In this document: piece by piece, positions 14,972-29,414 of the stretch | Numbering within the stretch: position 1 is the stretch's first letter | How the letters are laid out: each line of letters begins with the position of its first letter | NCBI GenBank assembly: GCA_024405515.1 | Contig: JAKSOR010000002.1 | Coordinates: 14,062 to 78,061 of the forward strand | Reading direction: 5' to 3' | DNA: 64,000 nucleotides | Source: Clostridia bacterium | GTDB lineage: Bacteria > Bacillota > Clostridia > Christensenellales > CAG-917 | The notes under the pieces: generated by a model | Databases searched by the model: none | Seen by the model: the letters and a program-made list of their open reading frames with translations, nothing else | Told to the model about the DNA's origin: nothing | Translations under genes and position numbers: made by a program

Positions 14972-16384
14972 TTATGCATTTCTAGCAAGAGTTCTGATGT
15001 GTGTCTTGCATATCGGCATTCTGTCTACGCCGAATAATTCGTCTAAGTATGCACAGAGTTTATCGGCACTGTTTCTTAAGTAAACAGGGTTCTGTGCTTC
15101 AAGTTTTCTTATGACTTTCTTTGATAAAATGTCATCAAGTGCCTCAAGTTCGTTTCCGCCACATGCTACATATACTGGTATGTATGTCTTTATCTGCTTC
15201 ATGATTCGGTTACCGAATGTCATATGGAAGTTTTCAATTAAATATGCATCTAATTTCTCAAGTCTTCTCATATTTCTTGAGGTAATCTCATATTCTTCAA
15301 GTGCTTCTCTTGTCAGCTGATCGAACTGCTCTGCTGAAATGTGCACGTTCTTTGTCTTCGGTGCGATGAACGGTTCTGCTTTTGTATCAAGGTTAAGTAC
15401 CATAGCACGGTCATAAACCTTATCTGAGATAGCAAATGTAGAGTCGTCGTTGTTTGCTGTTCCTATAAACCACATGTTTACAGGGAGTTTTATTCTTCCG
15501 TTAACAAGTTCTGTCGGGTCTGTGTCCCATTTATCAGAAACTACGTCTAAGAATCTTTCATCCGGGTTAGGGAGTTCAAGGAGAGATAAGAACTCAGCAA
15601 AATAGTACTCGACACGGGCAATGTTCATTTCATCAAGAACTGTTACGTAAATGTCTTTAGAGTAGTTTGCTTCGTACATCTTCTCTAAGAGTTTTGTTTC
15701 ATTGAATCTCTGTGTGAATTCATTGTAGTAACCGATAAGGTCTGTTCTTTCTTTCCACATAGGCTGAACAGGGATAACAGTGGACTGGTTTTCAAGGAAG
15801 TCTCCGAATGCATGGGCAAGGGAGGTTTTACCTGTACCGGACATACCCTGAAGAATCATGATATGTGAAACCGAAAGACCTGCAATGAATCTTCTTATGT
15901 CATCAATTTCATAGTATAAGTGAAGCTTATTTGCTGCATACATATGGAATGAATCGCAGAATTTTTTAAGAGATATAGACTTATCGTAGTTTTCTCTCTG
16001 GTATGAGACTGCGTTCTGGTCTATCTGGGAAAGCATGCAGAAACGAGGAGTGTCGCCCTGTTCTTTCTTTTCTTTGACAGCTGACGGAGCAGCAACGCTG
16101 ATTCCGCCCTGAACCTGGATAGGGTTCTGACCATCGAGAACAATATCAATAGGCTCCGATTTTTTGGAAACGAACGATACTATGATGAGTATTACCAGGA
16201 ATACAGGCAGTAAAAGAAGGAATATGATAAGAACGTACATTGTTTCGGAATGTACAAGTGGAGGGTTGCCGCCTGCCTGTTCGAAATAATATGCGATGGA
16301 GAAAGCAAGCAATGCTGTCACAACGGCTATTGCTATGATAAATGCCACCATCATTATTATTTTCTTTGTTTTCTTATTTTCCAT
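14972..16384 (-). CDS. Membrane-tethered McrB-family (AAA_5-like) AAA+ NTPase, paralogue 1. It has an N-terminal 2-TM hairpin.
   Basis: Two hydrophobic helices sit at the N-terminus (IIMMVAFIIAIAVVTALLAFSIAYY and VLIIFLLLLPVFLVILIIVSFV). Walker A is ILQGMSGTGKTS (15824-15847). Walker B is VTVLDEMNIARVEYYFAEFLSLLE, which parallels McrB DEINRAN..FGEL..LIE. VIPVQPMW..TDLIGYY parallels McrB VQFHQSYSYEDFI.GY. The segment LPVNMWFIGTANNDDS...DRA parallels McrB IIGTMNTADRS...RRF. Confidence 0.8.
   Translation of the reverse strand: MENKKTKKIIMMVAFIIAIAVVTALLAFSIAYYFEQAGGNPPLVHSETMYVLIIFLLLLPVFLVILIIVSFVSKKSEPIDIVLDGQNPIQVQGGISVAAPSAVKEKKEQGDTPRFCMLSQIDQNAVSYQRENYDKSISLKKFCDSFHMYAANKLHLYYEIDDIRRFIAGLSVSHIMILQGMSGTGKTSLAHAFGDFLENQSTVIPVQPMWKERTDLIGYYNEFTQRFNETKLLEKMYEANYSKDIYVTVLDEMNIARVEYYFAEFLSLLELPNPDERFLDVVSDKWDTDPTELVNGRIKLPVNMWFIGTANNDDSTFAISDKVYDRAMVLNLDTKAEPFIAPKTKNVHISAEQFDQLTREALEEYEITSRNMRRLEKLDAYLIENFHMTFGNRIMKQIKTYIPVYVACGGNELEALDDILSKKVIRKLEAQNPVYLRNSADKLCAYLDELFGVDRMPICKTHIRTLARNA
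15000..16048. repeat. Direct repeat copy A: a 1049-bp tract identical to 18388-19436 (offset 3388 bp)
   Basis: Line-by-line comparison of about ten sampled blocks found no mismatch. The identical antisense ORFs in the track (15111-15320 and 18499-18708) agree with this. Confidence 0.85.
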
Positions 16385-16407: not shown

Positions 16408-18357
16408 TTAGTTATTACTATCCATAAAGTCATCGAGTGACATTACTTCATCTTTTACGTTTGTAGCCTGAGGGATTTCATCCATATTCGGGATTTCTTC
16501 CTTAACTTCATCCTTTGAAACCTTTGCTTTCTTCGGAGCTTTGGCTTCTTTAGGAGCTTTTTCAGGCTTTGCCTCTTTGCCTTTTGCCGCTTTTTCTGCT
16601 TCTTTGTCTTTCTTTATTTCTTCCTTAAGTTCTTTTGCAGGTTTTCTTAAAACTTTCTTTCTTATGGATTTCTTTGTCTTATTCCATTCTTTCTCAAAGA
16701 ACTGCTGGAAGTATTCGTATTCTTTTTCGAGCTGTGCAAATCCTTCTTCGGAAGTGTAGTCATCCATTTCGCCTTCAAGTCCCTGAGCAGATCTTAATGA
16801 ATTAAGTCTTGCCTTAAGATGAGCAAATTCTGTCTGGAGGGCAATGAGTTCTTTCTGCTTTTCTGAAAGTTCCTGCTCTTTTGCCGCAAACAGCATATTT
16901 GCTGCCTGTAATTTCTGGGCATGGGCTCTGTCGGAATCCTGTTTGTCCTGGTACATCATTTCAATGACCTGGTCTTTGTGCTCCATATCTGCCTTAAGTC
17001 TCAGTTTTTCCGTATTGACTGCAGCAGCTATATCTTCATCTCTTGATTCTTCCATTTCCTCAATTCTCTCGTCACATTCTTCTTCCATAGCGGCAAGTTT
17101 GAGTTTGAAATCAGAGAGCTGTTTTGCATTTGTATAGGTAGCTTTTGCAAGTTCCTGCTGTGATTCATCGAGTTCTGCTTCAAGTGATTCAATCTGTTCT
17201 GATAAATCTTCTGCTTCGGAAGCCATCTTCTCAATGGTCTTTAAGGATGCAGCAAGGTTAGCATGGTCATTTTCAAGGGATTTGTTTCTTCCCTCAAGAA
17301 GTGCCATATATTCATCAGGATCACCACCATTTTCCTTTACATGTCGGCGTACGGTTCTGATTTTTTCCTGAAGTTTTAAGTCTTCTTCTTCCTTTCTTCT
17401 TAATTCTTCCTTCTCATAAGCGGATTTGTAGAGTTTCTTTATATCAAGGCCGTGTTCGTATGTAAGGAAGGCTGAAAGGAATATTACTTCAGAGAATTCA
17501 TCTCCGATGTCATCTCCGAACGGTGTTAATACCTTTGTTTCCTCGGTTATTGTGTATCCGTCTCCCTGGTAATCCGTGATAAAGGAGTATAGGGCAAGGG
17601 CGTTCTTGAAATTATGGTTCATCTTAAGAACGTTTGTTCTTGTGATAGGCGGTTTAATCATCGGTACTTTTGCAACTTCTTCCATGAGCGGGGTGGAAAG
17701 GAGTGCCTCTACGCCGATAAGACAGTTGTTGATTCTGTCGATGATTTCCTTTGATTTGTTATGTGTTGAAAGGTACTGGTCATTTAATCTTGTCTCATTA
17801 AGATCACAGGAGTATTCGAGAGTTTCGCCGTGGAATGAAATTGTCTTCTTCATTTTAAGTTTTCCGCGGTATGTGTTGGTTCTTTCAAGAATCTTCTCAT
17901 ATCTGTCCTGAATGAATGATCTTAAGTATGTGAGTACAAGATATAAGAATCTGTTCTCATATACTGCAAAATCACTGAATCTTTCAACGGAATAGAGAGA
18001 TGACGGAATAAGCGGTTCGCCTTCTTCCGGGATTCTGTCTACAAGGTTAGTGTGTTTTGCAAGGTGCTCAACGGATTCTTTTGATACATGCTTGATTTTT
18101 TCAATCGGCATGACTTCTCCGTTGCTCTGAATGAACTGACGCTGTTCGGCTATTGCTTTTTCAATATATACAAGGCCTGATTCGATCTGATTTACCCACT
18201 CCTCATCGATCTTGCAAACTGAACGGATAATCTCGATACGGTCATTTTCCGTACCTACGGAAGCAGCTATTGACCTGTAGGTCGTAGCTTCCTGAGATTC
18301 TTTCGTTATTTTGCGGTAATCAACCAGCGCTCGGTAATATAGATCGTATATGTTCAT
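16408..18357 (-). CDS. 649-aa cytoplasmic protein in the McrC position. It has a ~330-aa N-terminal globular domain (possibly McrC/DUF2357-like), a ~270-aa coiled coil, and a K/E/A/P-rich tail ending in an acidic stretch. No nuclease motif was recognised.
   Basis: The gene lies between the two McrB-like genes, with gaps of 2 nt and 23 nt. It contains the motif DFAVYENRFLYLVLTYLRSF and, later, PPITRTNVLKMNHNFKNALALYSFI. Residues ~330-560 are heptad-like and E/K/L/Q-rich. The tail reads KKDKEAEKAAKGKEAKPEKAPKEAKAPKKAKVSKDE...SLDDFMDSNN. There is no hydrophobic segment. Confidence 0.6.
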   Translation of the reverse strand: MNIYDLYYRALVDYRKITKESQEATTYRSIAASVGTENDRIEIIRSVCKIDEEWVNQIESGLVYIEKAIAEQRQFIQSNGEVMPIEKIKHVSKESVEHLAKHTNLVDRIPEEGEPLIPSSLYSVERFSDFAVYENRFLYLVLTYLRSFIQDRYEKILERTNTYRGKLKMKKTISFHGETLEYSCDLNETRLNDQYLSTHNKSKEIIDRINNCLIGVEALLSTPLMEEVAKVPMIKPPITRTNVLKMNHNFKNALALYSFITDYQGDGYTITEETKVLTPFGDDIGDEFSEVIFLSAFLTYEHGLDIKKLYKSAYEKEELRRKEEEDLKLQEKIRTVRRHVKENGGDPDEYMALLEGRNKSLENDHANLAASLKTIEKMASEAEDLSEQIESLEAELDESQQELAKATYTNAKQLSDFKLKLAAMEEECDERIEEMEESRDEDIAAAVNTEKLRLKADMEHKDQVIEMMYQDKQDSDRAHAQKLQAANMLFAAKEQELSEKQKELIALQTEFAHLKARLNSLRSAQGLEGEMDDYTSEEGFAQLEKEYEYFQQFFEKEWNKTKKSIRKKVLRKPAKELKEEIKKDKEAEKAAKGKEAKPEKAPKEAKAPKKAKVSKDEVKEEIPNMDEIPQATNVKDEVMSLDDFMDSNN

Positions 18358-18359
18358 TT

Positions 18360-19688
18360 TTATGCGTTCCTTGCGAGTGTTCTAATATGTGTCTTGCATA
18401 TCGGCATTCTGTCTACGCCGAATAATTCGTCTAAGTATGCACAGAGTTTATCGGCACTGTTTCTTAAGTAAACAGGGTTCTGTGCTTCAAGTTTTCTTAT
18501 GACTTTCTTTGATAAAATGTCATCAAGTGCCTCAAGTTCGTTTCCGCCACATGCTACATATACTGGTATGTATGTCTTTATCTGCTTCATGATTCGGTTA
18601 CCGAATGTCATATGGAAGTTTTCAATTAAATATGCATCTAATTTCTCAAGTCTTCTCATATTTCTTGAGGTAATCTCATATTCTTCAAGTGCTTCTCTTG
18701 TCAGCTGATCGAACTGCTCTGCTGAAATGTGCACGTTCTTTGTCTTCGGTGCGATGAACGGTTCTGCTTTTGTATCAAGGTTAAGTACCATAGCACGGTC
18801 ATAAACCTTATCTGAGATAGCAAATGTAGAGTCGTCGTTGTTTGCTGTTCCTATAAACCACATGTTTACAGGGAGTTTTATTCTTCCGTTAACAAGTTCT
18901 GTCGGGTCTGTGTCCCATTTATCAGAAACTACGTCTAAGAATCTTTCATCCGGGTTAGGGAGTTCAAGGAGAGATAAGAACTCAGCAAAATAGTACTCGA
19001 CACGGGCAATGTTCATTTCATCAAGAACTGTTACGTAAATGTCTTTAGAGTAGTTTGCTTCGTACATCTTCTCTAAGAGTTTTGTTTCATTGAATCTCTG
19101 TGTGAATTCATTGTAGTAACCGATAAGGTCTGTTCTTTCTTTCCACATAGGCTGAACAGGGATAACAGTGGACTGGTTTTCAAGGAAGTCTCCGAATGCA
19201 TGGGCAAGGGAGGTTTTACCTGTACCGGACATACCCTGAAGAATCATGATATGTGAAACCGAAAGACCTGCAATGAATCTTCTTATGTCATCAATTTCAT
19301 AGTATAAGTGAAGCTTATTTGCTGCATACATATGGAATGAATCGCAGAATTTTTTAAGAGATATAGACTTATCGTAGTTTTCTCTCTGGTATGAGACTGC
19401 GTTCTGGTCTATCTGGGAAAGCATGCAGAAACGAGGGGTGTCTCCCTGTTCTTTCTTTTCTTTCTTGATAGATACACCTTCAGTAACCGTACCATTTGCA
19501 ACGATAGGGAGTGCTGATGACGATGTGATGTTTGCCAGGAACTTGGAGTCATCCTTTCTGAATGCCGCAAAAACGAGAGCAATAAGAATTAATGCCAGGA
19601 TTACGACATAAATAATGAGAGCAGTTTTGTTGAAAACCACATTAAAGAATGACTGCATTGCTTCTGATGCGCTGATTAATATGTTCAT
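18360..19688 (-). CDS. Membrane-tethered McrB-family AAA+ NTPase, paralogue 2. It has a single N-terminal TM.
   Basis: The N-terminal TM is ALIIYVVILALILIALVFAAF. From KEKKEQGDTPRFCM to the C-terminus it is 100% identical in protein sequence to paralogue 1 and carries the same Walker A/B and NNDD motifs. Confidence 0.8.
   Translation of the reverse strand: MNILISASEAMQSFFNVVFNKTALIIYVVILALILIALVFAAFRKDDSKFLANITSSSALPIVANGTVTEGVSIKKEKKEQGDTPRFCMLSQIDQNAVSYQRENYDKSISLKKFCDSFHMYAANKLHLYYEIDDIRRFIAGLSVSHIMILQGMSGTGKTSLAHAFGDFLENQSTVIPVQPMWKERTDLIGYYNEFTQRFNETKLLEKMYEANYSKDIYVTVLDEMNIARVEYYFAEFLSLLELPNPDERFLDVVSDKWDTDPTELVNGRIKLPVNMWFIGTANNDDSTFAISDKVYDRAMVLNLDTKAEPFIAPKTKNVHISAEQFDQLTREALEEYEITSRNMRRLEKLDAYLIENFHMTFGNRIMKQIKTYIPVYVACGGNELEALDDILSKKVIRKLEAQNPVYLRNSADKLCAYLDELFGVDRMPICKTHIRTLARNA
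18388..19436. repeat. Direct repeat copy B of the 1049-bp identical tract
   Basis: Same comparison as for copy A. Confidence 0.85.
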
Positions 19689-19695
19689 ACTGTCC

Positions 19696-22600
19696 TCACT
19701 GCTGGCTTACCTGGAGGGAAGAAAGTGCAATTACTTTCTGGCACTGTGAAATGCTGTCATCCCCGAAGATAGCCCCGAATGTTTCTGTAAATTTCTCCGC
19801 GTCATAGTTTTCAGCGTTTCTGAGTACTGAAACAATAACCGGAAGGAACTTATATGCCAGTGTAAAGTCGAGAGCTTCCGAAGCATCGGAGTTACATGCA
19901 AGCATTGTTGCTGCGAACTGCTCTGTTCTCATACACAGTTTGTTACTCATATGGTAAGGACTGTATTTTGCTACAAGGTCCTCAAGTCTGTCGATCTTCT
20001 TCCATGTGTCTTCTTCAAGTTCAAACTCACGTTTTGCAACCTGTGTCATATACTGGAACTGATCATAATCAACCTTTGTGATAGGTGTCTTTTTGTCTTT
20101 CTTTGTGCACTCGCCGGCCTCAAGATTGATAAAGCATGCAAGGTCAGCAATGTGCTTTGGAAGTGCATCAAGGTTTTCATCTCCGCATACGTTCATGCAG
20201 ATCCATAAATTGGACGGTACTTCGATAGCTCTGTTGATACCGCTCTTAAGTTCAATCATGTTGACCTTATTAGGATTTGAGATGTACTTGATAACAGGTG
20301 AGAAGAATAAGTCAATAGAGGAGAGTTTAACATTCTGAAGTCCGACAAAGGAAATCTGGGGAGCAGTGAATGTCCCTTTTGCTGCTGCCTTAGCGAATGG
20401 TGTTTCCTCAAGTCTTGAACCGTTCTTTTTGTAGAAGAGATCAAGCGGTGATTCTGCTCCTGTAAGATCCTGGAGTGTATTCTGTGAGAAGAAATATGCG
20501 TTCATGATTGCCACTGTGAGATCGAAAATCTGTTTAGGGGCACGGATGAGCATAAGTCTTGATGTTGCCATTGATGAAAGAAGTAATCTTGCCTGGCTGT
20601 AGTTGATTCCGAGGCCTCTTTCGTTTGAGAATACCAGGAACTGTTTGCATATCTTTGAGAAAGTAATGTTCTTATCAACGAATGCCTGTCCTTCGTCTTC
20701 TTTATTTGCTGTTTCTTCCTCATCATCGAATTTGAAGTTCTCAAATTCTTTTTCGAAGATGTCATCAAGCTGGGATGAAGATACTCTTTCTGCATGTTTG
20801 AATCTGTCAGGAGCGGTCTTTTCAATCTGTTTCTTCTTTGAGAGGTCTTTAAGTCTTATGGCTGCCCATACGATAAGACCGATTCCGCTTACTCCGACGA
20901 GTCCGCATATAGCAGCTACGGCAGCCTGGATAAGAATGCCGTCATTCTTGAGCATTAATACTGATACTATCGCGCACGCAATACCTATTAATGTTGCAGC
21001 AATTCCACCTGCCAAAAGACCTGTCCATTTCTTGAGTTTTGCAGGGGTGGAAGTTGCACGTAATCTGAAATCATCATCAATGATATTTGATTCTGACTGC
21101 AGATAATCTTTCTTCTTTTCTCCTGTTTTAGCGAGATCCTTGCCTGCAACGGTCATCTCATCCATTATCTTGATATTTGATACGGATGGTCCGATATAGA
21201 GGTCATAGATTCCGGACTGGAGAATCATTGAATCGGTATCAGGGTCATAGAATTCAAGGTTTTCGATAGGTACTGTTACTTCCTGTGATTCGCCCGGATT
21301 AAGTTTAACCTGGACAAATGCCTTGAGTTCCTTGTTAGGCGTCATTACTGCAGAACCTTCGTTACCTACGTAAATTTGGGCAGTTTCTTTACCTGCCATA
21401 CTGCCGGTATTTGTGATTGTGAAGGTTACATCAGTGCCTTTTACCGAGAATTTTGAATATGTGAATGTCGTATATGAAAGACCGAAACCGAACGGATAAC
21501 GGACTGAAATATTGGATGAGTCATAGTTATAATAACCAATAAACTGTCCTACTTTGTTTCTTCCGCTGTCACGGTTGTTCTTTATCTGCTGGAACCAGTC
21601 GTTTGTATCTTCGTAAAGGGAGATGCTCATTCTTCCGACCGGGTTGAATTTGCCAAAGATTACATTGATGAGGGCATACGCTGAATATGTTCCTTCAATA
21701 GGTGCCCAGATGACACTCTGATAATCTCTGTCCCATCCCATATCAACAGGATATCCTGATGAAACGATGGCAACTGTCTTGTCTCCGAACTGGCTTAATC
21801 TGTCTATAAGTGCCTGCTGGTTTGCAGGGAGTGCAAGGTCCATTGAATTATGGATATTTGCCTCATATTCTTTGTTTGTTCCGAGGAACAGCCATATCAT
21901 ATCTGCCTGACCTGCAAGAGATTCAGCCTGGGAAAGAAGTTCTTCAGAGATATTTTCCTCAACATTGTATCCAGGAGCATGGCCTATAAATTCAAAATCA
22001 AGAGTCTTTGCATATGCTGTGAGACCGCCGATATAGTTAGGTGAACCGGAAAGTCCGTCCACGTCACCGATAATTGCTATTTTCTTTTTCTCTTTTACAG
22101 GGAGAATACCGAATTTATTCTTTAAAAGAACTACTGATTCGAGTGATGCTGCCTGAGCGCATGATGTGGCGCTGCTTGATGCCTGTCTGTTGCATGCATC
22201 GGCGAAATCAAAGAGTTTGTCAAGTGCTGCATCGAGCATTTCAGGAGATACTGCGCTTCCTTCCTCAATGGTCATGTTAAGGTCTTCAATTGAACCTGAA
22301 CCCTCGAGAATGGATTTCTGAAGTGACTGATAGTTCGCAACTGCAGAGGCGAGGGAAGATGCTGCGCCTTTAAGACACAGATTACCCTTTACAAGCTCTC
22401 TTAAAGTTTCATCAAAAGAATAGGCATCCGCAAATACTGTTGTTCCGAGCTGAGATTTGGCGACCTGGTCTATAAATGAGCGGTTTATATCCCCATAGTC
22501 TTTCAGCATTTTTGTTGAAGTTACGACTGCTTCGGCTTTGCACTTCTTCATTGCCTGCATATAAGGACTGATGAAGAAATGGTAGACAATTCTCTTAGAA

Positions 22601-23046
22601 GGAGTCGAATCGAAATATTCTATATCTGTATCCGCGACTGAGAAATCAGGAACGATGGATGCAGAACCTGCCTTGTGAACACCGCTGATGAAAGCGCCGG
22701 TGAAGATACCTGAAAGATACGGATCTTCACAAAGACCAGGCATGTACATGTTGCATCTAGGTTTTGCTGTCGGGACCTCAATAAGGTTTACGCCGGTTGC
22801 TCTTGCTGTGTTAGCGATATCGAGAGCACTTGCTTCCATAAGGGTGGTATCCCATGAATTTGCAAGGGCGGCGGCAGGCGGGTAAGCTTTTACTGCCTGT
22901 GTGCTGAGGTTTTCGAGAGTGTCCATTGTAACCTGCGGGACTCCCATTGCGTTCAGTTCCGGATTGGAGAGATTGGTCACATCCGTTAAGAGTGCAATCT
23001 TCTGCTGAACTGATAATTGATCGATAATTTGCGAATGTTTAATCAT
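19696..23046 (-). CDS. 1116-aa fusion protein: a GH3-like three-domain module (N-domain, C-domain, Fn3-like) with no signal peptide, a 2-TM hairpin and a degenerate (Walker-dead) McrB-like AAA+ domain
   Basis: GH3 hallmarks include KKIAIIGD, ADMIWLFLGTNKEYEAN...LALPANQQALI, PVGRMSISL, RYPFGFGLSYTTFTYS and GKETAQIYVG...ELKAFVQVKLNPGESQEVTV. The hydrophilic N-terminus is MIKHSQIIDQLSVQQ. The TM hairpin is WTGLLAGGIAATLIGIACAIVSVLML and ILIQAAVAAICGLVGVSGIGLIVWAAI (about 20851-21024). The C-terminal 323 aa align along their length with the neighbouring AAA+ proteins. Confidence 0.8.
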   Translation of the reverse strand: MIKHSQIIDQLSVQQKIALLTDVTNLSNPELNAMGVPQVTMDTLENLSTQAVKAYPPAAALANSWDTTLMEASALDIANTARATGVNLIEVPTAKPRCNMYMPGLCEDPYLSGIFTGAFISGVHKAGSASIVPDFSVADTDIEYFDSTPSKRIVYHFFISPYMQAMKKCKAEAVVTSTKMLKDYGDINRSFIDQVAKSQLGTTVFADAYSFDETLRELVKGNLCLKGAASSLASAVANYQSLQKSILEGSGSIEDLNMTIEEGSAVSPEMLDAALDKLFDFADACNRQASSSATSCAQAASLESVVLLKNKFGILPVKEKKKIAIIGDVDGLSGSPNYIGGLTAYAKTLDFEFIGHAPGYNVEENISEELLSQAESLAGQADMIWLFLGTNKEYEANIHNSMDLALPANQQALIDRLSQFGDKTVAIVSSGYPVDMGWDRDYQSVIWAPIEGTYSAYALINVIFGKFNPVGRMSISLYEDTNDWFQQIKNNRDSGRNKVGQFIGYYNYDSSNISVRYPFGFGLSYTTFTYSKFSVKGTDVTFTITNTGSMAGKETAQIYVGNEGSAVMTPNKELKAFVQVKLNPGESQEVTVPIENLEFYDPDTDSMILQSGIYDLYIGPSVSNIKIMDEMTVAGKDLAKTGEKKKDYLQSESNIIDDDFRLRATSTPAKLKKWTGLLAGGIAATLIGIACAIVSVLMLKNDGILIQAAVAAICGLVGVSGIGLIVWAAIRLKDLSKKKQIEKTAPDRFKHAERVSSSQLDDIFEKEFENFKFDDEEETANKEDEGQAFVDKNITFSKICKQFLVFSNERGLGINYSQARLLLSSMATSRLMLIRAPKQIFDLTVAIMNAYFFSQNTLQDLTGAESPLDLFYKKNGSRLEETPFAKAAAKGTFTAPQISFVGLQNVKLSSIDLFFSPVIKYISNPNKVNMIELKSGINRAIEVPSNLWICMNVCGDENLDALPKHIADLACFINLEAGECTKKDKKTPITKVDYDQFQYMTQVAKREFELEEDTWKKIDRLEDLVAKYSPYHMSNKLCMRTEQFAATMLACNSDASEALDFTLAYKFLPVIVSVLRNAENYDAEKFTETFGAIFGDDSISQCQKVIALSSLQVSQQ
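19699..20667 (-). other. Pseudo-ATPase McrB-like domain (Walker A and Walker B lost)
   Basis: Manual alignment to the paralogues:
- SHIMILQGMSGTGKTSLAHAF vs SRLMLIRAPKQIFDLTVAIM (GKT lost)
- VTVLDEMNIARVEYYFAEFLSLL vs SFVGLQNVKLSSIDLFFSPVIKYI (DE becomes LQ)
- IKLPVNMWFIGTANNDD..ISDKVYDRAMVLNLD vs IEVPSNLWICMNVCGDE..LPKHIADLACFINLE
- the C-terminal helical parts also align (ISAEQFDQL.. vs VDYDQFQYM..). Confidence 0.7.
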
Positions 23047-23067: not shown

Positions 23068-26000
23068 TTAATCTATGTCCTTAGTTTTGATTTTTAATCC
23101 GTACAGATATACCTTGTCGTTTGCTGTACTGTTTGCTGATAAACTTGTGTTGTTAATCCTGAACTTGAGTGAATTGCCGGAGTTCAGTGTTATTGAGTAG
23201 TGAACTGGGTCAGCTGTGACTTTGATTCCGTCCTGGCTGAGTGCATCATTTATGAATACCTGGAGTTCTGAGGATGAACTCTTGAAATCTACAAAGTAAC
23301 TGAAGTCTGCCTCGACACTCTTACCTTCCGGTGCTTTTATTTCTATTGCTGTATAGTACTGTTTCTGGCTGCACTTTGATTTAAGCACTACTGCATTATC
23401 CTCGTATGCTACATATGAAACTCCCTGGAATATATCTGTAAGGGTAATTTCTTCTCGTGTCTTTGCATTGGCTGAATTGATTAATGTCCAGTGGCAGACC
23501 TTACATTCATTGTTTTCGTCAAGGTCATGGCTTCCCGGAGCAGTTGTTGAATATTCATCTCCACAGGCCGGGCATTTGAAGATTGTGTATACTTCGATAT
23601 CGCAGTTGTCTGATTCAACTCTGTCTGGAACGAAGTGGTTGATTTCTGTTGAGATTTCGCCTGCAGCTGTGAGTGTCCACTGAGTATTCTCATGTACACA
23701 TGCAGCATAATAAAGAACAGTGATATCACCGAAGCTTCTGTTTGATCTGATGCTTGGCCATGTTGTAGCTGTTCCTTTGTAATAAACAGTACCGGTGAAA
23801 TTGTTCGGATTCTGGAACCATAAGTTGGAGAATAATGCAATTGATGAAGGGGCGATAATCTTGTCAATATGTGAATCAGGATTTGTCATTGATAATTCGG
23901 CAACTGTGTAGGAATTAATCTCGCTTCCTTCGAATTCAAATGAATCGGCAAGTTCAAGAAGACCGTTTTCTGTTTCTCCTGAGATACTGTATAGATACCA
24001 TTTATCTGCATTATAGAGTGAATACGATACGTAGTAGAATTCTCCGTCTCTGAGTGTGTTTACGCTGAGAGCGCCTGCACTCTGGACAACTTCCTTTGCA
24101 TAGAGTGATACCTGGCCGTTGCTTGTTGTGCCGGTAACCACAGTTAAACCGGAAAGGTTGATGATGCCGTATAAATGCTTGCATCCCGTGAATGCTTCCG
24201 TAGAGATTGACTCAAGGTTTTCAGGAAGTGTGAGTACAGAGAGTCCGTAACAGTTATAGAATGCCTGCTCACCGATTGAAAGAAGTGAGGACGGCAGAGT
24301 GATATTATAAAGTCTGTAGCAGTTGTAATATGTTTTTCTGCTAATTGACTCAAGGTTTTCAGGAATATTTATATCTTCGAGTCTGTAACAGTTTTCGAAT
24401 GCACTTTCTCCGATTTCGGTTACTGTTGAAGGTATTGTGAGTGCAAGAAGTGAAGAGCAGTTCTTAAATACTTCTTCTCCGAATGATGTGAGATTAACGG
24501 AAGCAGAAGGAAGAGTTACAGCACTTAAATTCAGACATCCGCTGAACATGGAATCTGCAAGAACTTTTAATGATGAAGCACCGCTTAAATCTGCAGTCGT
24601 GAGTGAAGTGCAGCCTGCGAAACAGTTTTCAGGGAGTACTGTTACAGCTCCTGATACTGATACTGATTTGATTGCCGGGTTTGCATTGAAGATTCCGCCG
24701 AGAACTTTGTACTGGAAAGGGAGACCGTCATATGCATCTCCTTCTGCGGATTCGAATTCACCGAGGACGAGATTTTCAGGCATCATGCTATTAAGTGCAT
24801 ATAAGAACCAGTCTATTCCGTTTGTCTTGAAGACGAAATCGCCGTATACAGAATCGTAAAGGCTCTTCTTTGTTTTGTTATTGTGTATAAGAAGTGCATT
24901 CTTTGCAACATATCCGTGATTATCGCTTCCCTGTTCAATGTCAAATGATGTCAGATTGTATACATCATAAAGAACCGGGCATCCGATGAATGCGGATTCA
25001 CCGATATTTGCCTCACTGAGTGAGAACGGGAGATATACTGCAGAAAGTGATGAGTCATATGCAAATGCAAAGTCACTGATTGTTTCTGTTCCGTCAGGAA
25101 TTTTTGCATCTTTTAATTTTGCACAGCTGTTGAATGCATAACTGCCGATTTCCCTGAGATAACATGTGTCTTCCGGGAATAAAATGCTTTCAAGAGATGC
25201 GTTTTCTGAGAATGCATAGTCACCGATACTGCTGATACATGCTGCAATGCCGATCTTTGTGATGGCAGTGTTGGCCTCAGCAAAGTGCCCGATGATATTG
25301 TATTTTGATGCTGTTCTTACAATTCCTCTTGCATTTTCACCGGATGGTGTCTGAGGAAGTGTGAGTTCAGTCTTTGAATGATCGTAGTCAACAAGATACC
25401 AGTCACCGCCGTGTGTAACGTCTGCTTTATAGAATTCAAATCCGTTTTCATCAGTGAATTTTTCGGAATCAGCTATATATGCTGTTTCTGAATCATAGAC
25501 TGCGAGCGGGTTAGGGGCTACAGCTGTGAACGGTGAAGGGTTAATGATTTCAACAAGTTTATAGCAGTTGTTGAAAGCGTTTGATTCTATATCGTCAATA
25601 AGTCCCGACGGGATATTTATGTAGTTAAGGGATGTACATCCGTCAAATGCGTTGGACTCGATTGTCTTGATATCATCATTGAGAGAGACTCTCTTTAATG
25701 ATGTGAGTCCGTAGAATGCATTCTGAGGAATAAGTGTCGCTTTTGTAAGAGCAACTTCCCTGAGTGTTTCCGGTACATATTTATTTCCGTTTACCGCAAT
25801 GCCTGAACCGAAGATATATGCAAGATATCCGTACTCATCCCCGTTTCTGTTTCCGACATAAGGAAGTGATAACTTAACAAGGGAACCGCATCCGAGGAAT
25901 GAATTCTGACCGATGGTTGTGACTGTTTCGGCAATAGTTGCTTCGGTAAGGGCAGCACAGCTGTTGAATTCGTTTTCACTGATTAATGTGGCACCGTCTT

Positions 26001-28572
26001 TCTGTGTTAATGTGGTGAGTTTTGAGTTGTTTGCAAATGCATAAGGTTTTACATCGCTGCATACAGGAAGCTCAAGTGAAACAAGCTGTGTGTTCTGGAA
26101 TGCTTTTTCATCAATTAAATCAAGAGAACCTTTGAATTCTACTGAGGTAAGACCGCTCTCTGCAAAAGCCTGTTTTCCGATTGCTTTGATATTGTCCGGG
26201 ATTACGATGGTTTCAATACCGGATCTGTAGAAAGCTTTTTCCTGGATTTCAGTAAGATTTGCTGTGAGATTAATGCTTACAAGCTTGGCACATCCCTCAA
26301 AGGCGCTTGCCCCAATGGAATCGACGCCCTGGGAAAGTGTTATTGTCTGAATTGAAGATGCATTTTTGAATGCGCTGTCCGGAACAGTAACTGCATCAAG
26401 GAGAACAACAGAAACAACGGATGCCGGGATTTCTGTATCCTTTCTTGTTCCGAATAAATATGCGAATGTATGTGCGGTATCTGTTTTTGATGCACCTAAG
26501 TACGGGATGGTTACTTCTCTTAAGTTTGTGTCTCCTCCGAGAATGTTTGTTCCTATTTCGGTTACGGTTACAGGAATATATACCGAAGTTAATGATGTAC
26601 ATGATGCAAATGCATTGTTTCCGATTGTCCTGAGAGAGCTCTTTGGAAGAGTTAACTGTTTAAGTGATGCACAGTTGTGGAACGCAAATGTTCCGATGGA
26701 AACAACAGTATCTGGGATTTCGATTGTCTCTACATTCTTGCAGTGATAGAAAGCATTATCGACAAGTTCTGTTATATCGTTTCCGGTTAACTTGACCGTT
26801 TTAAGTGAGGCAGGAACTTGAACCTGACTTTCGGAATATGCTGCATTTCCGTTACCGAAAATGTAAGCAAAATGTCTGAACTGTGCTGAAGCAGTTCTTG
26901 ATTTTCCCATGAAAGGGACAGAAATTGATTTCATTGATGTGCAGCCTCTGAATGCACTGAGTCCGATGGACTGAACTGTTTCAGGAACGGTTGCATTTAA
27001 GATACCATCACAGTTTTCAAATGCGCTCTCGCCTATATTTCTTACTTTGTCTGAGAATGTGACATTTTTAAGTGAAGAGCATCCGAAGAATGTGTTGTCC
27101 GGGATATCCGTTGTGAGTTTTGATATATCTGTGTCAAGAGCTGAGCATCCTTCGAAAACGCTGGTTCCGAGTGCGGTGATTCCGGAAAGATCGAATTTTG
27201 TAATTCCGGAATTTTTGAATGCACTGTCACCGAGTTCTGTGAACTTGGATGGTGTTTCGATTGATGCAAGTTTATAGCAGTTTTCGAAAGCACTTTCTCC
27301 GACATATGTGTTTGAAAGGTCAAGAATCGTTAATGATTCAAGAGCTGTCATATTCTTTGAGAAATTATCACCGATTGCCGAAACATAGCCGAGAGTCAGC
27401 TTTTTGAGTGAATATGTTTTTGTATCGGCAAATTCTTTACCGAACATTTTATGAAGGGTGTCATCTGTTCCGGTGAATCCGAGTGTAGGGAGATAAATCT
27501 CTTCAAGTGAGAAGTCGTTTGCAAAGAGGAAATTAATGCCGTTTGCAACTGTTACAGGCTGATCTATTCTGACTGATTTTAATTTCTGACAGTTCAGGAA
27601 AACCTTTTCCCCGAGAGTGAGATCGGCTGTCCCTGAGAATGAAATACTTGATAAAGCAGTGCAGTCTTCAAATGCTCTGCTGCCTACAGTGAGCATGGAT
27701 TCTGAAGAAATGCTTTCAAGTGCAGGGCAGTTATAGAATGCCTGCATACCGATGGTGGTTGTGCTCCCGAGAGATACTGACTTAAGGTCTGTACAGTTTG
27801 CAAAAGCCCTGTCGCCGATTGCCGGATTTCCCTCAATAACCACCGAAGTGATGGTTTTGTTTGAGAGAGCTTCTTCTTTTATGGCTACGACTTTCATTCC
27901 CTGGATTACATCAGGAATGATGATATTTGTCTCATGTCCTTTATAGTTCGTTACAACTATTTCAGACATGTCATCAGCCGTGTCCGAGAATTCATATTCA
28001 ATGTTATCAAGAGTGAATACTGCGGCAGATTCAACGAAAGCACCGAGCTGGAGCCAGGTGAATCCGAATGCAGCAAGAATTACAACAACTGTAACGATGA
28101 GTAAAAGGCCGCCGAGTTTATAGTTTTTAGGAGCAACGGACTTTTTCTGAAGTCCCATTGTCTTTTTAATAGAATCATCAAGTTCAATCTGTTTCGGCGG
28201 GTCATAAGATACTGCCGTATTGTTCTTTTTGTAGGAATATTTGTAATCACCAAAGTCGGCTGCAACTATCTGTACCTTGAAATCGGTACAGTCATCATGA
28301 ATGAAAATGTCCTCACTAACGCTGAAACTTTCACCGCCGGCGCAGTGTATATCGTGTGATTTTACAAGCTGTTCACCGATTTTGTTTCCTCTCTTATCCA
28401 TTTCAAGGACGAGGAACTGGATTCCGCTGATAGTAGTCTCTTCATTGTTGTCAAAACGGAGGAGTAAACATTTTTTATCATTCTTATATGCAAAAATGAA
28501 CTGTTTTAAAGTTACCTGTTCATTTGACTGCGGATATGAGTAAAAACCTTTCGAAATTATCTGATAGTCCAT
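23068..28572 (-). CDS. 1834-aa type-II membrane protein. It has a ~155-aa cytoplasmic N-terminal domain, one TM, a long extracellular BspA-type (LRR_5-like) leucine-rich repeat array, a Cys-rich knuckle and a C-terminal beta-rich domain.
   Basis: The TM is KNYKLGGLLLIVTVVVILAAFGFTWL. There are dozens of units of the form I(G/P)..AF..C..L.S(I/V).(I/L)P..(V/L)..I. Near the C-terminus the sequence reads CPACGDEYSTTAPGSHDLDENNECKVCHW. No N-terminal signal peptide is present. Confidence 0.85.
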   Translation of the reverse strand: MDYQIISKGFYSYPQSNEQVTLKQFIFAYKNDKKCLLLRFDNNEETTISGIQFLVLEMDKRGNKIGEQLVKSHDIHCAGGESFSVSEDIFIHDDCTDFKVQIVAADFGDYKYSYKKNNTAVSYDPPKQIELDDSIKKTMGLQKKSVAPKNYKLGGLLLIVTVVVILAAFGFTWLQLGAFVESAAVFTLDNIEYEFSDTADDMSEIVVTNYKGHETNIIIPDVIQGMKVVAIKEEALSNKTITSVVIEGNPAIGDRAFANCTDLKSVSLGSTTTIGMQAFYNCPALESISSESMLTVGSRAFEDCTALSSISFSGTADLTLGEKVFLNCQKLKSVRIDQPVTVANGINFLFANDFSLEEIYLPTLGFTGTDDTLHKMFGKEFADTKTYSLKKLTLGYVSAIGDNFSKNMTALESLTILDLSNTYVGESAFENCYKLASIETPSKFTELGDSAFKNSGITKFDLSGITALGTSVFEGCSALDTDISKLTTDIPDNTFFGCSSLKNVTFSDKVRNIGESAFENCDGILNATVPETVQSIGLSAFRGCTSMKSISVPFMGKSRTASAQFRHFAYIFGNGNAAYSESQVQVPASLKTVKLTGNDITELVDNAFYHCKNVETIEIPDTVVSIGTFAFHNCASLKQLTLPKSSLRTIGNNAFASCTSLTSVYIPVTVTEIGTNILGGDTNLREVTIPYLGASKTDTAHTFAYLFGTRKDTEIPASVVSVVLLDAVTVPDSAFKNASSIQTITLSQGVDSIGASAFEGCAKLVSINLTANLTEIQEKAFYRSGIETIVIPDNIKAIGKQAFAESGLTSVEFKGSLDLIDEKAFQNTQLVSLELPVCSDVKPYAFANNSKLTTLTQKDGATLISENEFNSCAALTEATIAETVTTIGQNSFLGCGSLVKLSLPYVGNRNGDEYGYLAYIFGSGIAVNGNKYVPETLREVALTKATLIPQNAFYGLTSLKRVSLNDDIKTIESNAFDGCTSLNYINIPSGLIDDIESNAFNNCYKLVEIINPSPFTAVAPNPLAVYDSETAYIADSEKFTDENGFEFYKADVTHGGDWYLVDYDHSKTELTLPQTPSGENARGIVRTASKYNIIGHFAEANTAITKIGIAACISSIGDYAFSENASLESILFPEDTCYLREIGSYAFNSCAKLKDAKIPDGTETISDFAFAYDSSLSAVYLPFSLSEANIGESAFIGCPVLYDVYNLTSFDIEQGSDNHGYVAKNALLIHNNKTKKSLYDSVYGDFVFKTNGIDWFLYALNSMMPENLVLGEFESAEGDAYDGLPFQYKVLGGIFNANPAIKSVSVSGAVTVLPENCFAGCTSLTTADLSGASSLKVLADSMFSGCLNLSAVTLPSASVNLTSFGEEVFKNCSSLLALTIPSTVTEIGESAFENCYRLEDINIPENLESISRKTYYNCYRLYNITLPSSLLSIGEQAFYNCYGLSVLTLPENLESISTEAFTGCKHLYGIINLSGLTVVTGTTSNGQVSLYAKEVVQSAGALSVNTLRDGEFYYVSYSLYNADKWYLYSISGETENGLLELADSFEFEGSEINSYTVAELSMTNPDSHIDKIIAPSSIALFSNLWFQNPNNFTGTVYYKGTATTWPSIRSNRSFGDITVLYYAACVHENTQWTLTAAGEISTEINHFVPDRVESDNCDIEVYTIFKCPACGDEYSTTAPGSHDLDENNECKVCHWTLINSANAKTREEITLTDIFQGVSYVAYEDNAVVLKSKCSQKQYYTAIEIKAPEGKSVEADFSYFVDFKSSSSELQVFINDALSQDGIKVTADPVHYSITLNSGNSLKFRINNTSLSANSTANDKVYLYGLKIKTKDID

Positions 28573-28575
28573 GGT

Positions 28576-29262
28576 TTAACCTTTTTTCTCCTTCAGTTTG
28601 AGTCCCACAATGAGGGCTGCGGTTGCTATCGCACTCAGTCCGAGACCTATACCTATGGTAATAAAAATGCTGCCTAATGATGAATTGAACAGTTCCGCAT
28701 AAAGTCCGCCGACCATCTGGGAAAGGCAGTATTTAATAATAAAACACTCGGCAGTGATTAAAATGGCACTGATTACGCAGAACGGAATCAGTCTCTTAAG
28801 CTCAATGCTTGAGTGCTCGTCTTTTTCAATTTTGTCGTTATTAACCTGGTTGAGAATAAGGGATACGTATGAGGTTCCTTCAGGGAGTGCAATGATTGAT
28901 GTGGTTCCTTTCTTTTCAATGAGTTCCTTTACTGCAAGGACCTTGATGATTTTGTTTTCATCATCGAATGCCACTATATCAAAATCAATGTACTGGATGT
29001 CATCACGTATTTTTGCATAAAAGTATGACTGTGTTCCCTTTTCGTAAAGAATGTACTGGTTGATGTATTTTCTGATTTTAAGGGCAGGTACAAATAAAAT
29101 CCCGATACCGCTGGCATCTTTGAACTTTTTGATGCCTCTGTCTGAGGAAGATGTGATTTTGTAACGCGATTTAAGGAAAATTCTTGCAAGCGGAAATACT
29201 ATGATTAATGCCACTGCGACTATTGTTGCGAAAATTATTCCGATCCAGCCTGCAACACTCAT
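28576..29262 (-). CDS. 228-aa membrane protein, first gene of the operon. It has TM1, a ~130-aa cytoplasmic domain and two C-terminal TMs.
   Basis: The start at ATG 29262 is preferred over the track start at 29403. GGAGA lies 6-7 nt upstream (minus-strand context GCGAGGAGACTAAAAATG), and the predicted promoter lies inside the longer ORF. The protein begins MSVAGWIGIIFATIVAVALIIVF. The C-terminal helices are LIPFCVISAILITAECFII and IFITIGIGLGLSAIATAALIVGL. Confidence 0.7.
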   Translation of the reverse strand: MSVAGWIGIIFATIVAVALIIVFPLARIFLKSRYKITSSSDRGIKKFKDASGIGILFVPALKIRKYINQYILYEKGTQSYFYAKIRDDIQYIDFDIVAFDDENKIIKVLAVKELIEKKGTTSIIALPEGTSYVSLILNQVNNDKIEKDEHSSIELKRLIPFCVISAILITAECFIIKYCLSQMVGGLYAELFNSSLGSIFITIGIGLGLSAIATAALIVGLKLKEKKG

Positions 29263-29298
29263 TTTTAGTCTCCTCGCAATTAATAATAAATTATTAAG

Positions 29299-29327
29299 AT
29301 TGTAAGGAATTACCCGAAGATAGTCAA
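29299..29327 (-). promoter_or_regulatory. Sigma-A-type promoter of the large operon: TTGACT, 17 nt spacer, TACAAT
   Basis: Minus strand reading: -35 TTGACT (29322-29327), 17-nt spacer, -10 TACAAT (29299-29304). The -10 lies about 35 nt upstream of the ATG at 29262. Confidence 0.55.
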
Positions 29328-29414
29328 TTTCGAGAAAAAAGTTAATTATTAAAGTATCATATTGTGGTAAAGAGAACAAATATACACAATATGTTGTGCG
29401 CACATATATATGCG

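Follow-up and report, generated by a model that had tools for sequence, protein, structure and literature searches.

A doubly degenerate GH3-McrB fusion protein encoded with McrBC-like NTPases and giant surface proteins in uncultured Clostridia

A GH3-like module joined to an McrB-like module

The window analysed here is a 64,000-nucleotide stretch of a contig from a Clostridia bacterium (JAKSOR010000002.1, positions 14,062 to 78,061). Its minus strand carries eight closely spaced genes, referred to below as the cassette, which encode two active McrB-like NTPases, a McrC-like protein and giant surface proteins. The subject of this work is the cassette gene at 19696-23046, whose product of 1116 amino acids joins a glycoside hydrolase family 3 (GH3)-like module to a McrB-like module through a transmembrane (TM) hairpin. 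The catalytic motifs of both modules are lost in this copy and family-wide, and the protein is therefore predicted to be non-catalytic, as an earlier note made from the sequence alone had proposed. The open reading frame (ORF) starts with ATG, follows an AGGAG ribosome-binding site (RBS) and lies 21 nt beyond the stop codon of the preceding gene. Met1 is almost invariant among 88 aligned relatives. The gene was defined from the ORF list and its translation, from more than 100 full-length relatives with 25-34% identity, and from an AlphaFold2 model.

The GH3-like module comprises residues 1-640 (21127-23046, minus strand) and was characterised by Pfam, by sequence and fold matches in the PDB, by scoring of active-site positions and by non-synonymous divergence (pN). 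Pfam matched GH3_C at residues 305-525 (E 6e-33, 115 bits against a cut-off of 31) and the Fn3-like domain at residues 554-621 (E 8e-16, 58 bits against a cut-off of 25). The N-terminal barrel is degenerate and stayed below threshold, with 19.5 bits against a cut-off of 27 over residues 53-177. Among solved structures, the best sequence match was BglB, a cytoplasmic beta-glucosidase from C. thermocellum (7ms2), which aligned with residues 52-631 at E 3e-57. The AlphaFold2 model, based on the 88 relatives, had a mean pLDDT of 89 and a pTM of 0.65. When the full-length model was compared with the PDB by Foldseek, the best 50 matches were all GH3 enzymes (E down to 5e-40, target TM-score 0.58-0.79), a listing that is uninformative on the C-terminal module. 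Pfam, the PDB match and Foldseek thus agree with the earlier description of a complete GH3 domain order, consisting of a (beta/alpha)8 barrel, an alpha/beta sandwich and an Fn3-like end, and with its quotation of RYPFGFGLSYTTF, which lies at residues 516-528. The cytoplasmic three-domain GH3 beta-glucosidases (BglB 7ms2, PSTG1 8j9f and the B. adolescentis enzyme 5wab) share this domain order and fold and a signal-less N-terminus. Unlike them, the window protein has most of its active-site residues replaced, and continues beyond the GH3 domains into a TM hairpin and an AAA+ module.

To score the active site, 108 full-length relatives were aligned with ten ordinary 800-residue GH3 enzymes from the same search. 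Eight positions were scored: the Asp of SDGP, the Arg, the Lys-His pair, the Tyr, the nucleophile Asp together with the Trp of its motif, and the acid/base Glu in the S-E-G motif of the second domain. Each of the ten ordinary enzymes retained all eight residues. Among the relatives, 63 of 108 retained none, 42 retained one and three retained two, and no relative exceeded two. The window protein has T43, C98, P133-D134, T178, D207-A208 and N397 at these positions; seven of the eight residues are replaced, and D207 alone is retained. KH has become PD, GR has become NM, and the acid/base Glu is Asn (N397). The erosion of the KH position, already pointed out in the earlier note, was confirmed against both the PDB match and the family alignment. 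Its reading of the nucleophile motif holds only for the context: within GTTVFADAYS, D207 aligns with the nucleophile and survives, but the surrounding S/T-D-W is replaced by A-D-A.

The retained Asp is not a feature of the family. In the nucleophile column the relatives have K (22 of 108), E (20), D (18) or N (7), compared with D in all ten ordinary enzymes, and D207 was apparently kept by chance in this copy. The acid/base column contains R, K, N or E among the relatives, compared with E in 10/10 ordinary enzymes. The frequency of the commonest residue in the eight columns is 0.10-0.40 among the 108 relatives, against a mean of 0.47 for the module. The invariant residues of the module are the usual GH3 structural motifs (LLKN..LP, PANQ, GYR and PFGxGLSY), and no new family-specific pocket motif replacing the lost sites was visible in the family alignment. 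On these alignments, the loss of the GH3 site is old and family-wide rather than confined to this copy, and the replacements show a protein that is predicted to be unable to cleave sugars by the GH3 mechanism.

That the protein is nevertheless a working, membrane-tethered beta-glucosidase is suggested by its strong GH3_C and Fn3-like matches and by the alignment of D207 with the nucleophile. We consider this highly improbable: the acid/base Glu and the KH pair are replaced, the Arg, Tyr, Trp and substrate-binding Asp are lost, the barrel falls below the Pfam cut-off, and the D207 column has D in just 18 of 108 relatives. The database name 'beta-glucosidase' is therefore wrong for this protein. 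The earlier note had warned that automated names would mislead, and they do: public relatives are called 'beta-glucosidase' (JGI), 'glycoside hydrolase family 3 C-terminal domain-containing protein' (NCBI) or 'hypothetical protein'. A scan of a genome collection with the family alignment and the generic motif [YF]PFG[FHY]GL[SGT]Y returned ordinary GH3 enzymes alone, with no match extending past query residue ~713.

Pseudoenzymes often retain ligand binding. The earlier note had suggested that the GH3-like module senses a glycan or muropeptide ligand; as a cytoplasmic sensor for these or similar ligands, it might gate the NTPase ring. The complete GH3 fold, the high model confidence and the purifying selection described below are all compatible with such a role. 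It is weakened by the variability of the eight catalytic and -1 subsite positions, which lie below the module mean, and by the nature of the invariant residues, which are ordinary structural motifs. Since the loss of the site is old and no replacement pocket motif is present, a conserved sugar-sensing role appears unlikely. The module would more probably serve as a rigid cytoplasmic docking platform than as a sugar sensor.

The McrB-like module, the membrane hairpin and selection

The C-terminal module comprises residues 786-1116 (19699-20691, minus strand) and contains an AAA+ core and lid. It was defined by BLASTP, by hhalign and by its motif losses, and is referred to here as the dead McrB module. 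BLASTP aligned it with the neighbouring AAA_5 protein (E 2e-16, 21% identity over 340 residues). Comparison by hhalign of 20 dead domains with 28 active neighbours gave a probability of 99.7% and an E-value of 3e-26 over 324 columns. The aligned region begins in the helices ahead of the AAA+ core, including the subfamily-specific N-terminal helices, and extends through the lid to the C-terminal tail, in agreement with the end-to-end homology to the neighbouring McrB-like proteins that had been noted earlier. Identity between dead and active modules is 18-21%, and the best-conserved motifs common to both lie in the lid (ACGG...ALD, GNK/GNR and FGxD).

The nucleotide-handling motifs are absent. 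In the BLASTP alignment the Walker A sequence of the active neighbour, GMSGTGKTS, corresponds to RAPKQIFDLT, and the reported replacement of Walker A is thus upheld. The Walker B sequence LDEM corresponds to LQNV (in context GLQNV), with D replaced by Q and E by N; the earlier note was correct that the DE pair is lost, but its 'LQ' was one residue out of register. The NxxD signature at the sensor-1 position is NNDD in the active neighbour and CGDE in the dead module, and the Arg position YDRA corresponds to ADLA. Across the family, GK[ST] was found in the dead modules of just two of the 108 relatives, the Walker B positions are variable, and the signature position is mostly xxGE. On sequence grounds, these alignments show the module to be a duplicate of the McrB-type NTPase of the cassette itself, stripped of all nucleotide-handling motifs, and the protein is predicted to lack the motifs needed for nucleotide binding or hydrolysis.

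None of the 20 dead domains gave a Pfam match, AAA_5 included, and automated annotation will therefore miss the domain. When the dead-domain profile was searched against the PDB, E. coli McrB was found at a weak E-value of 0.05, yet it took the top three places and was aligned in the correct register. The link from the dead module to McrB is therefore transitive, via the neighbouring gene. A search of 1.84 billion representative proteins with the same profile gave 494 clusters at E<=1e-30. Most of the 150 best matches listed carry the domain as the C-terminal part of a protein of ~1050-1440 amino acids; the shorter matches appear to be partial sequences from short contigs.

The two modules are joined by a TM hairpin at residues ~677-727 (20866-21018, minus strand), recognised from hydropathy, charge counts, a sample of the family and the AlphaFold2 model. 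The hydrophobic helices lie at ~681-699 and ~708-726, with a short KNDG loop between them, and correspond to two long helices in the model (669-700 and 704-743). A conserved juxtamembrane motif, SDYLQSxSNI, precedes the hairpin. The 15-residue flanks contain four K+R residues on the N-terminal side and five on the C-terminal side, and the loop contains one. No hydrophobic segment was found within the first 60 residues in any of the 108 family members, and the N-terminus of the window protein aligns with residue 1-2 of cytoplasmic GH3 enzymes. Hydropathy of the protein and of its 108 relatives agrees with the earlier description of a hydrophilic, signal-less N-terminus followed by two adjacent TM helices.

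Because an N-terminal signal or TM helix is absent from all 108 relatives, the number of TM helices is even and the hairpin flanks are rich in K and R on either side of a short loop, we infer by the positive-inside rule that both large modules are cytoplasmic, which supports the topology proposed in the earlier note. The cassette otherwise codes for large extracellular proteins, and one might place the GH3-like module outside the cell as well, acting on or binding cell-wall glycans. This arrangement is most unlikely, given the lack of any signal peptide or N-terminal TM helix across the family and the K/R-rich flanks and short loop of the hairpin; the McrB-like module, too, would then lie outside and apart from the cytoplasmic NTPases that it resembles. 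The charge and hydropathy pattern of the hairpin recurs in the sampled relatives with the exception of P0091. In that protein a 48-residue Lys-rich linker lies between the GH3-like and dead McrB modules, giving a naturally soluble version.

Selection was examined by comparing the window with its 78%-identical orthologue in a second locus, L093. Synonymous sites were saturated (pS ~0.8) even against this closest orthologue, and dN/dS was therefore set aside in favour of statements of the pN/pS type. The values of pN were 0.10 for the GH3 barrel, 0.12 for GH3_C plus the Fn3-like domain and 0.16 for the dead McrB module. For comparison, pN was 0.20 (0.198) for the neighbouring housekeeping gene queH and 0.37 for the surface leucine-rich repeat (LRR) protein of the cassette. 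Constraint on both dead modules is thus equal to or above that on queH, and both are maintained by purifying selection. A decaying pseudogene was ruled out by the intact ORF, the conservation of length in more than 100 relatives and the low pN.

The cassette, its active NTPases and the McrC-like protein

The eight cassette genes are spaced by 2-23 nt, and each has an RBS. The first (28576-29262) encodes a small multi-TM membrane protein of 228 amino acids, identified by its RBS, its TM segments and orthologues of 225-233 amino acids in the same place. It is followed by a BspA-type LRR giant of 1834 amino acids (23068-28572; LRR_5, E 3e-185), with a conserved cytoplasmic N-domain of ~150 residues, a TM helix at residues 153-171 and an extracellular LRR_5 region of ~1660 residues. 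The gene for the GH3-McrB fusion comes next, and ends 7 nt upstream of the first active McrB-like NTPase gene (18360-19688). This NTPase 1 has 442 amino acids and a single N-terminal TM helix. The McrC-like protein (16408-18357; 649 amino acids, no TM helix) is encoded between NTPase 1 and NTPase 2 (14972-16384), which has 470 amino acids, two N-terminal TM helices and an NTPase module identical to that of NTPase 1. The last two genes encode giant surface proteins. One (10349-14959; 1536 amino acids) is TM-anchored and has an MBG domain and a transglutaminase-like domain with an intact Cys motif, GICSHF (Transglut_core, 1e-21). The other (2-10330; more than 3443 amino acids) is anchored by an N-terminal TM segment and contains an MBG domain and, at residues 2592-2698, a second Transglut_core; it is the last visible cassette gene and runs off the start of the window. 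Every member of the cassette is membrane-anchored except the McrC-like protein.

The same cassette, with the same gene order, was present in nine of nine loci, namely the window and eight metagenomic loci; the GH3-like protein led to five of these eight, and the McrC-like protein to the other three. L093 (JGI 3300001598) is a truncated additional locus that matches the upstream part. The flanking genes vary among loci and are metabolic in the window, where the GC content of the cassette is uniform with its surroundings. By its source names, the family belongs to uncultured Clostridia (Oscillospiraceae/Ruminococcaceae and Candidatus Coproplasma). The motor is 68-87% conserved between genomes, and the surface LRR protein evolves fast, with 47% identity where the fusion protein has 78%. 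Full-text searches of the literature on McrBC-type, transglutaminase, LRR and GH3-pseudoenzyme themes found no description of the cassette.

The N-domain of the LRR protein (28123-28572, residues 1-150; also in L001, L003, L086, L087 and L093) contains a beta-rich cytoplasmic domain of ~125 residues before the TM helix, with the motifs IISKG.Y, KQF, LLLR..N and C.DF.V. A similarity to the soluble domain of the small membrane protein (KQY...YDVVLF...NKVFKVL) is apparent on visual inspection.

The active NTPases were related to McrB by several comparisons. NTPase 1 has intact GMSGTGKT, LDEMN and NNDD motifs and matched AAA_5 with 29.7 bits against a cut-off of 22. The sole PDB match of the active NTPase was E. 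coli McrB, with an E-value of 0.003 for the single sequence and 0.002 for the profile, in an alignment extending from Walker A to the NTAD signature, which is NNDD in the cassette. Among PADLOC models, it matched the defence candidate PDC-M26A at 1e-46; none of the remaining cassette proteins gave a PADLOC match. The N-termini consist of one or two TM helices and a low-complexity linker, with no DNA-recognition domain. The tether to the membrane is ~44 residues long in the active NTPases and ~59 in the dead module.

A McrB-type GTPase with intact motifs thus occurs in one operon with a McrC-type partner. Pfam and an AlphaFold2 model divide the McrC-like protein into a DUF2357 N-domain (30.8 bits against a cut-off of 23.3), a single helix of ~180 residues and a K-rich disordered tail. 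The N-terminal 300 residues are very conserved. Neither Pfam nor a PDB profile search nor Foldseek revealed a PD-(D/E)xK or other nuclease in this protein, and no nuclease or effector toxin was recognisable in any cassette gene. The family profile matched only coiled-coil proteins in the PDB. Foldseek of the model against the PDB gave nothing below E 0.1 and recovered no known McrC structure, a comparison probably dominated by the long helix. Residues ~71-128 contain many invariant positions (R73, Q74, F75, I76, G80, E81, E86, K87, K89, S95, H98, L99 and H102) and are modelled with a pLDDT of only ~48-62, a pattern that would fit a segment ordered only inside a partner such as the pore of an NTPase ring.

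The two active NTPase genes of the window contain a tract of 1049 nt that is identical between them, at 18388-19436 in the first and 15000-16048 in the second, both on the minus strand. The encoded proteins are identical over 368 C-terminal positions (367 residues and the stop), and seven differences in the last 28 nt of the genes are all synonymous. In L089 there are 16 differences at the 3' end, again synonymous only. In all nine loci (the window, L001, L003 and L085-L090) the C-terminal 364-405 positions, including the stop, are identical between the two active NTPases of the same genome, compared with 68-87% identity across genomes; only the membrane anchors differ, with one TM helix or two. 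The dead paralogue was never homogenised with the active pair. An assembly artefact was rejected as unlikely, given the agreement of nine independent assemblies, the different N-termini and the two loci with synonymous-only 3' differences. Frequent gene conversion and selection for identical proteins both seem to act on the pair, and its identity fits a ring built of one type of motor module with different anchors.

The contig of L093 (96.6 kb) ends after 110 codons of the first McrB-like gene, just short of where the duplicated tract begins in the window. Short-read assemblies probably break at this repeat, and the cassette is possibly under-represented or fragmented in metagenome bins.

Related systems and possible function

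McrBC is the textbook GTP-dependent restriction motor. The cassette resembles E. coli McrBC in the Walker A, Walker B and NNDD (NTAD in E. coli) motifs of its NTPases and in the DUF2357 (McrC N-domain) partner encoded between them, and the C-terminal module of the fusion protein is paralogous to these NTPases. It differs in having TM helices in place of the N-terminal DNA-binding domain, a coiled coil in place of the PD-(D/E)xK nuclease, three McrB-type modules (two identical and active, one dead) and giant surface proteins.

The CoCoNuT and CoCoPALM systems are also McrBC-derived, with long coiled coils and McrC homologues that may be nuclease-less (Bell et al. 2024, PMC11090510). In CoCoPALM, named but not yet detailed in that work, the GTPase is fused to TM and coiled-coil (FtsB-like) domains (PMC11090510). 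Unlike these systems, the cassette has no HEPN or other nuclease, no FtsB-like domain and no signal peptidase; Pfam families for an FtsB-like fusion or for signal-peptidase-family genes were found neither in the cassette genes nor in the nine loci. The CoCoNuT/CoCoPALM clades are defined by an NxD signature, with a one-residue deletion relative to NxxD (PMC11090510). The invariant TANNDDS of the cassette aligns ungapped with MNTADRS of E. coli McrB and so reads as NxxD, although N-N-D followed by D is also readable as NxD+D. GH3, LRR_5 and transglutaminase partners are not mentioned in PMC11090510 or in the supplements searched.

The closest relatives of the active NTPase module (37-39% identity) are encoded on plasmids of Rhodoferax antarcticus (NZ_CP019242.1, 42465-55484) and Deinococcus sp. 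AJ005, in loci with the order MkoA, MkoB, PDC-M26A-like NTPase and DUF2357 protein. At the Rhodoferax locus the two preceding genes were assigned by PADLOC as MkoA-like (an SF1 helicase) and MkoB-like; the Deinococcus order is identical by annotation. The four-gene module looks like a Mokosh/McrBC hybrid defence locus. As in the cassette, the NTPase is followed by a DUF2357 protein, but the plasmid NTPases are soluble proteins of ~790 amino acids with a long N-terminal domain and no TM helices, the DUF2357 proteins align with that of the window only over the DUF2357 core, and dead paralogues, GH3-like modules and surface proteins are absent from the loci.

These relatives raise the question of whether the cassette is itself an anti-phage system, a membrane-sensing McrBC or Type IV-like defence in which the fusion protein would be a sensor or regulatory subunit. 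The PDC-M26A match, the MkoA/MkoB-like and DUF2357 neighbours of the nearest NTPases and the existence of McrBC derivatives without a McrC nuclease in CoCoNuT systems (PMC11090510) are in favour of this explanation. Nuclease-less McrC proteins of CoCoNuT systems, however, are always accompanied by a HEPN or other nuclease (PMC11090510), which the cassette lacks, as it lacks a recognisable effector toxin. PADLOC matched no cassette protein other than the NTPase, which is highly conserved, and the cassette has metabolic neighbours and no compositional anomaly. A defence function is, on this evidence, quite unlikely.

MoxR ATPases belong to the same helix-2-insert clade as McrB-type ATPases. The MoxR/DUF58/transglutaminase clusters combine an AAA+ ATPase with transglutaminase-like and surface proteins, as the cassette does, but contain MoxR instead of McrB and no McrC-like partner, pseudo-GH3 or LRR_5 protein; they may be taken as a loose functional analogy only. 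The Bifidobacterium PFNA cluster, for example, encodes an AAA+ ATPase, a large surface adhesion protein and a transglutaminase-like protein with a TM anchor (PMC8430577).

From the sequence comparisons taken together, we think it probable, though well short of certain, that the fusion protein is a non-catalytic, membrane-tethered scaffold or adaptor subunit of a membrane-bound, non-restriction complex that is derived from McrBC and coupled to surface proteins. The complex would contain the two active McrB-like GTPases, with identical motors on one or two TM helices, and the McrC-like activator, with its DUF2357 domain and a coiled coil of ~26 nm but no nuclease. We read it as a membrane machine rather than a restriction enzyme because the cassette has no DNA-binding domain and no nuclease and co-encodes giant surface proteins. 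Driven by GTP, such a machine would assemble, regulate or mechanically couple to the giant LRR and transglutaminase-like surface proteins. The dead McrB module would probably assemble with or onto the active ring through its retained AAA+ core and lid, and the GH3-like module would offer the docking platform. The LRR protein encoded directly upstream offers a candidate docking partner in its conserved N-domain, which may be a cytoplasmic handle touching the motor or the pseudo-GH3 module.

Inactive AAA+ subunits are known from mixed assemblies, such as the clamp-loader delta and delta-prime subunits and dynein AAA5/6, in which they have a structural role among active protomers. They resemble the dead module in having an AAA+ fold without nucleotide motifs, and differ from it in having no sequence relationship to it. 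Assembly of the dead module with or onto the active ring, much as the earlier note had proposed, is plausible and is favoured indirectly by the constant synteny in nine of nine loci, by the retained core and lid together with the helices ahead of the core, by the tight gene spacing and by the similar tether lengths; taken by itself, we would rate this arrangement at slightly less than an even chance. The dead module might instead act beside the ring, as a decoy for the McrC-like activator or as a separate recruiting platform. The loss of residues of the nucleotide site both in cis and in trans, the low identity to the active module and the homogenisation of the active pair without the dead copy are in favour of this. 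The full-length alignment, with its best-conserved shared motifs in the lid, the similar membrane tethers and the 7-nt distance between the two genes argue against it, and action beside the ring is somewhat unlikely.

Several observations weigh against an adaptor within a membrane-bound, non-restriction ring. The dead module lacks the Arg at the YDRA position, which aligns with an Arg-rich stretch of E. coli McrB. If it were a protomer of the ring, its own nucleotide site and that of its neighbour would probably both be silent; one may speculate that this would be tolerable at the seam of an asymmetric hexamer. One relative, P0091 (1085 amino acids), has no TM hairpin, and membrane anchoring is thus not absolutely required. 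A degenerate nuclease fold is possible in residues 129-303 of the McrC-like protein. Finally, the closest active-NTPase relatives lie in plasmid loci beside Mokosh-like genes (MkoA/MkoB, PDC-M26A), and a defence role is possible.

The scaffold interpretation can be taken further, to a new kind of bacterial surface machine in which a membrane-embedded McrB-type GTPase ring is held by three different TM anchors, the fusion protein providing one of them. GTP hydrolysis would drive the McrC-like protein, with its long coiled coil, as a shaft, and the machine would tension, assemble or switch the giant TM-anchored LRR and transglutaminase-like adhesins across the membrane. This is a tentative extension, and rather doubtful as it stands. 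In such a machine, a restriction-enzyme motor may have been exapted for the surface biology of gut Clostridia, and the pseudo-GH3 module may serve as a structural stator or docking platform. The gliding motor of Mycoplasma mobile contains parts derived from housekeeping enzymes, an analogy only for the pseudo-GH3 module.

The annotation of the family has practical consequences, in that ~500 protein clusters from gut and rumen metagenomes, defined at 50% identity, carry or are due to carry the label beta-glucosidase or GH3. Such labels inflate inventories of carbohydrate degradation with a protein that almost certainly cleaves nothing. The motor has neither a DNA-binding domain nor a nuclease, is carried on three kinds of anchor and, in many uncultured Clostridia, is tied genetically to giant LRR and transglutaminase-like surface proteins. 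If the proposed function is correct, McrBC-type GTPases would reach beyond nucleic-acid defence to functions of the envelope or surface. The cassette is also a tractable example of selection maintaining a fusion subunit in which both modules are dead, and of extreme concerted evolution, with two paralogues identical over ~1 kb in every genome examined.

Minor features of the window were noted upstream of the cassette and in scans for regulatory elements. An Rfam scan of the window found no riboswitch or other RNA family, and a promoter scan returned no more sites than in shuffled sequence. A TTGACT-17-TACAAT element at 29327-29299 is suitably placed upstream of the gene for the small membrane protein, and is a consensus match rather than evidence of a promoter. 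The ORF called mechanically for this gene runs from a GTG over 28576-29403 (275 amino acids), and the start is probably the ATG at 29262, which has a GAGGAG RBS upstream.

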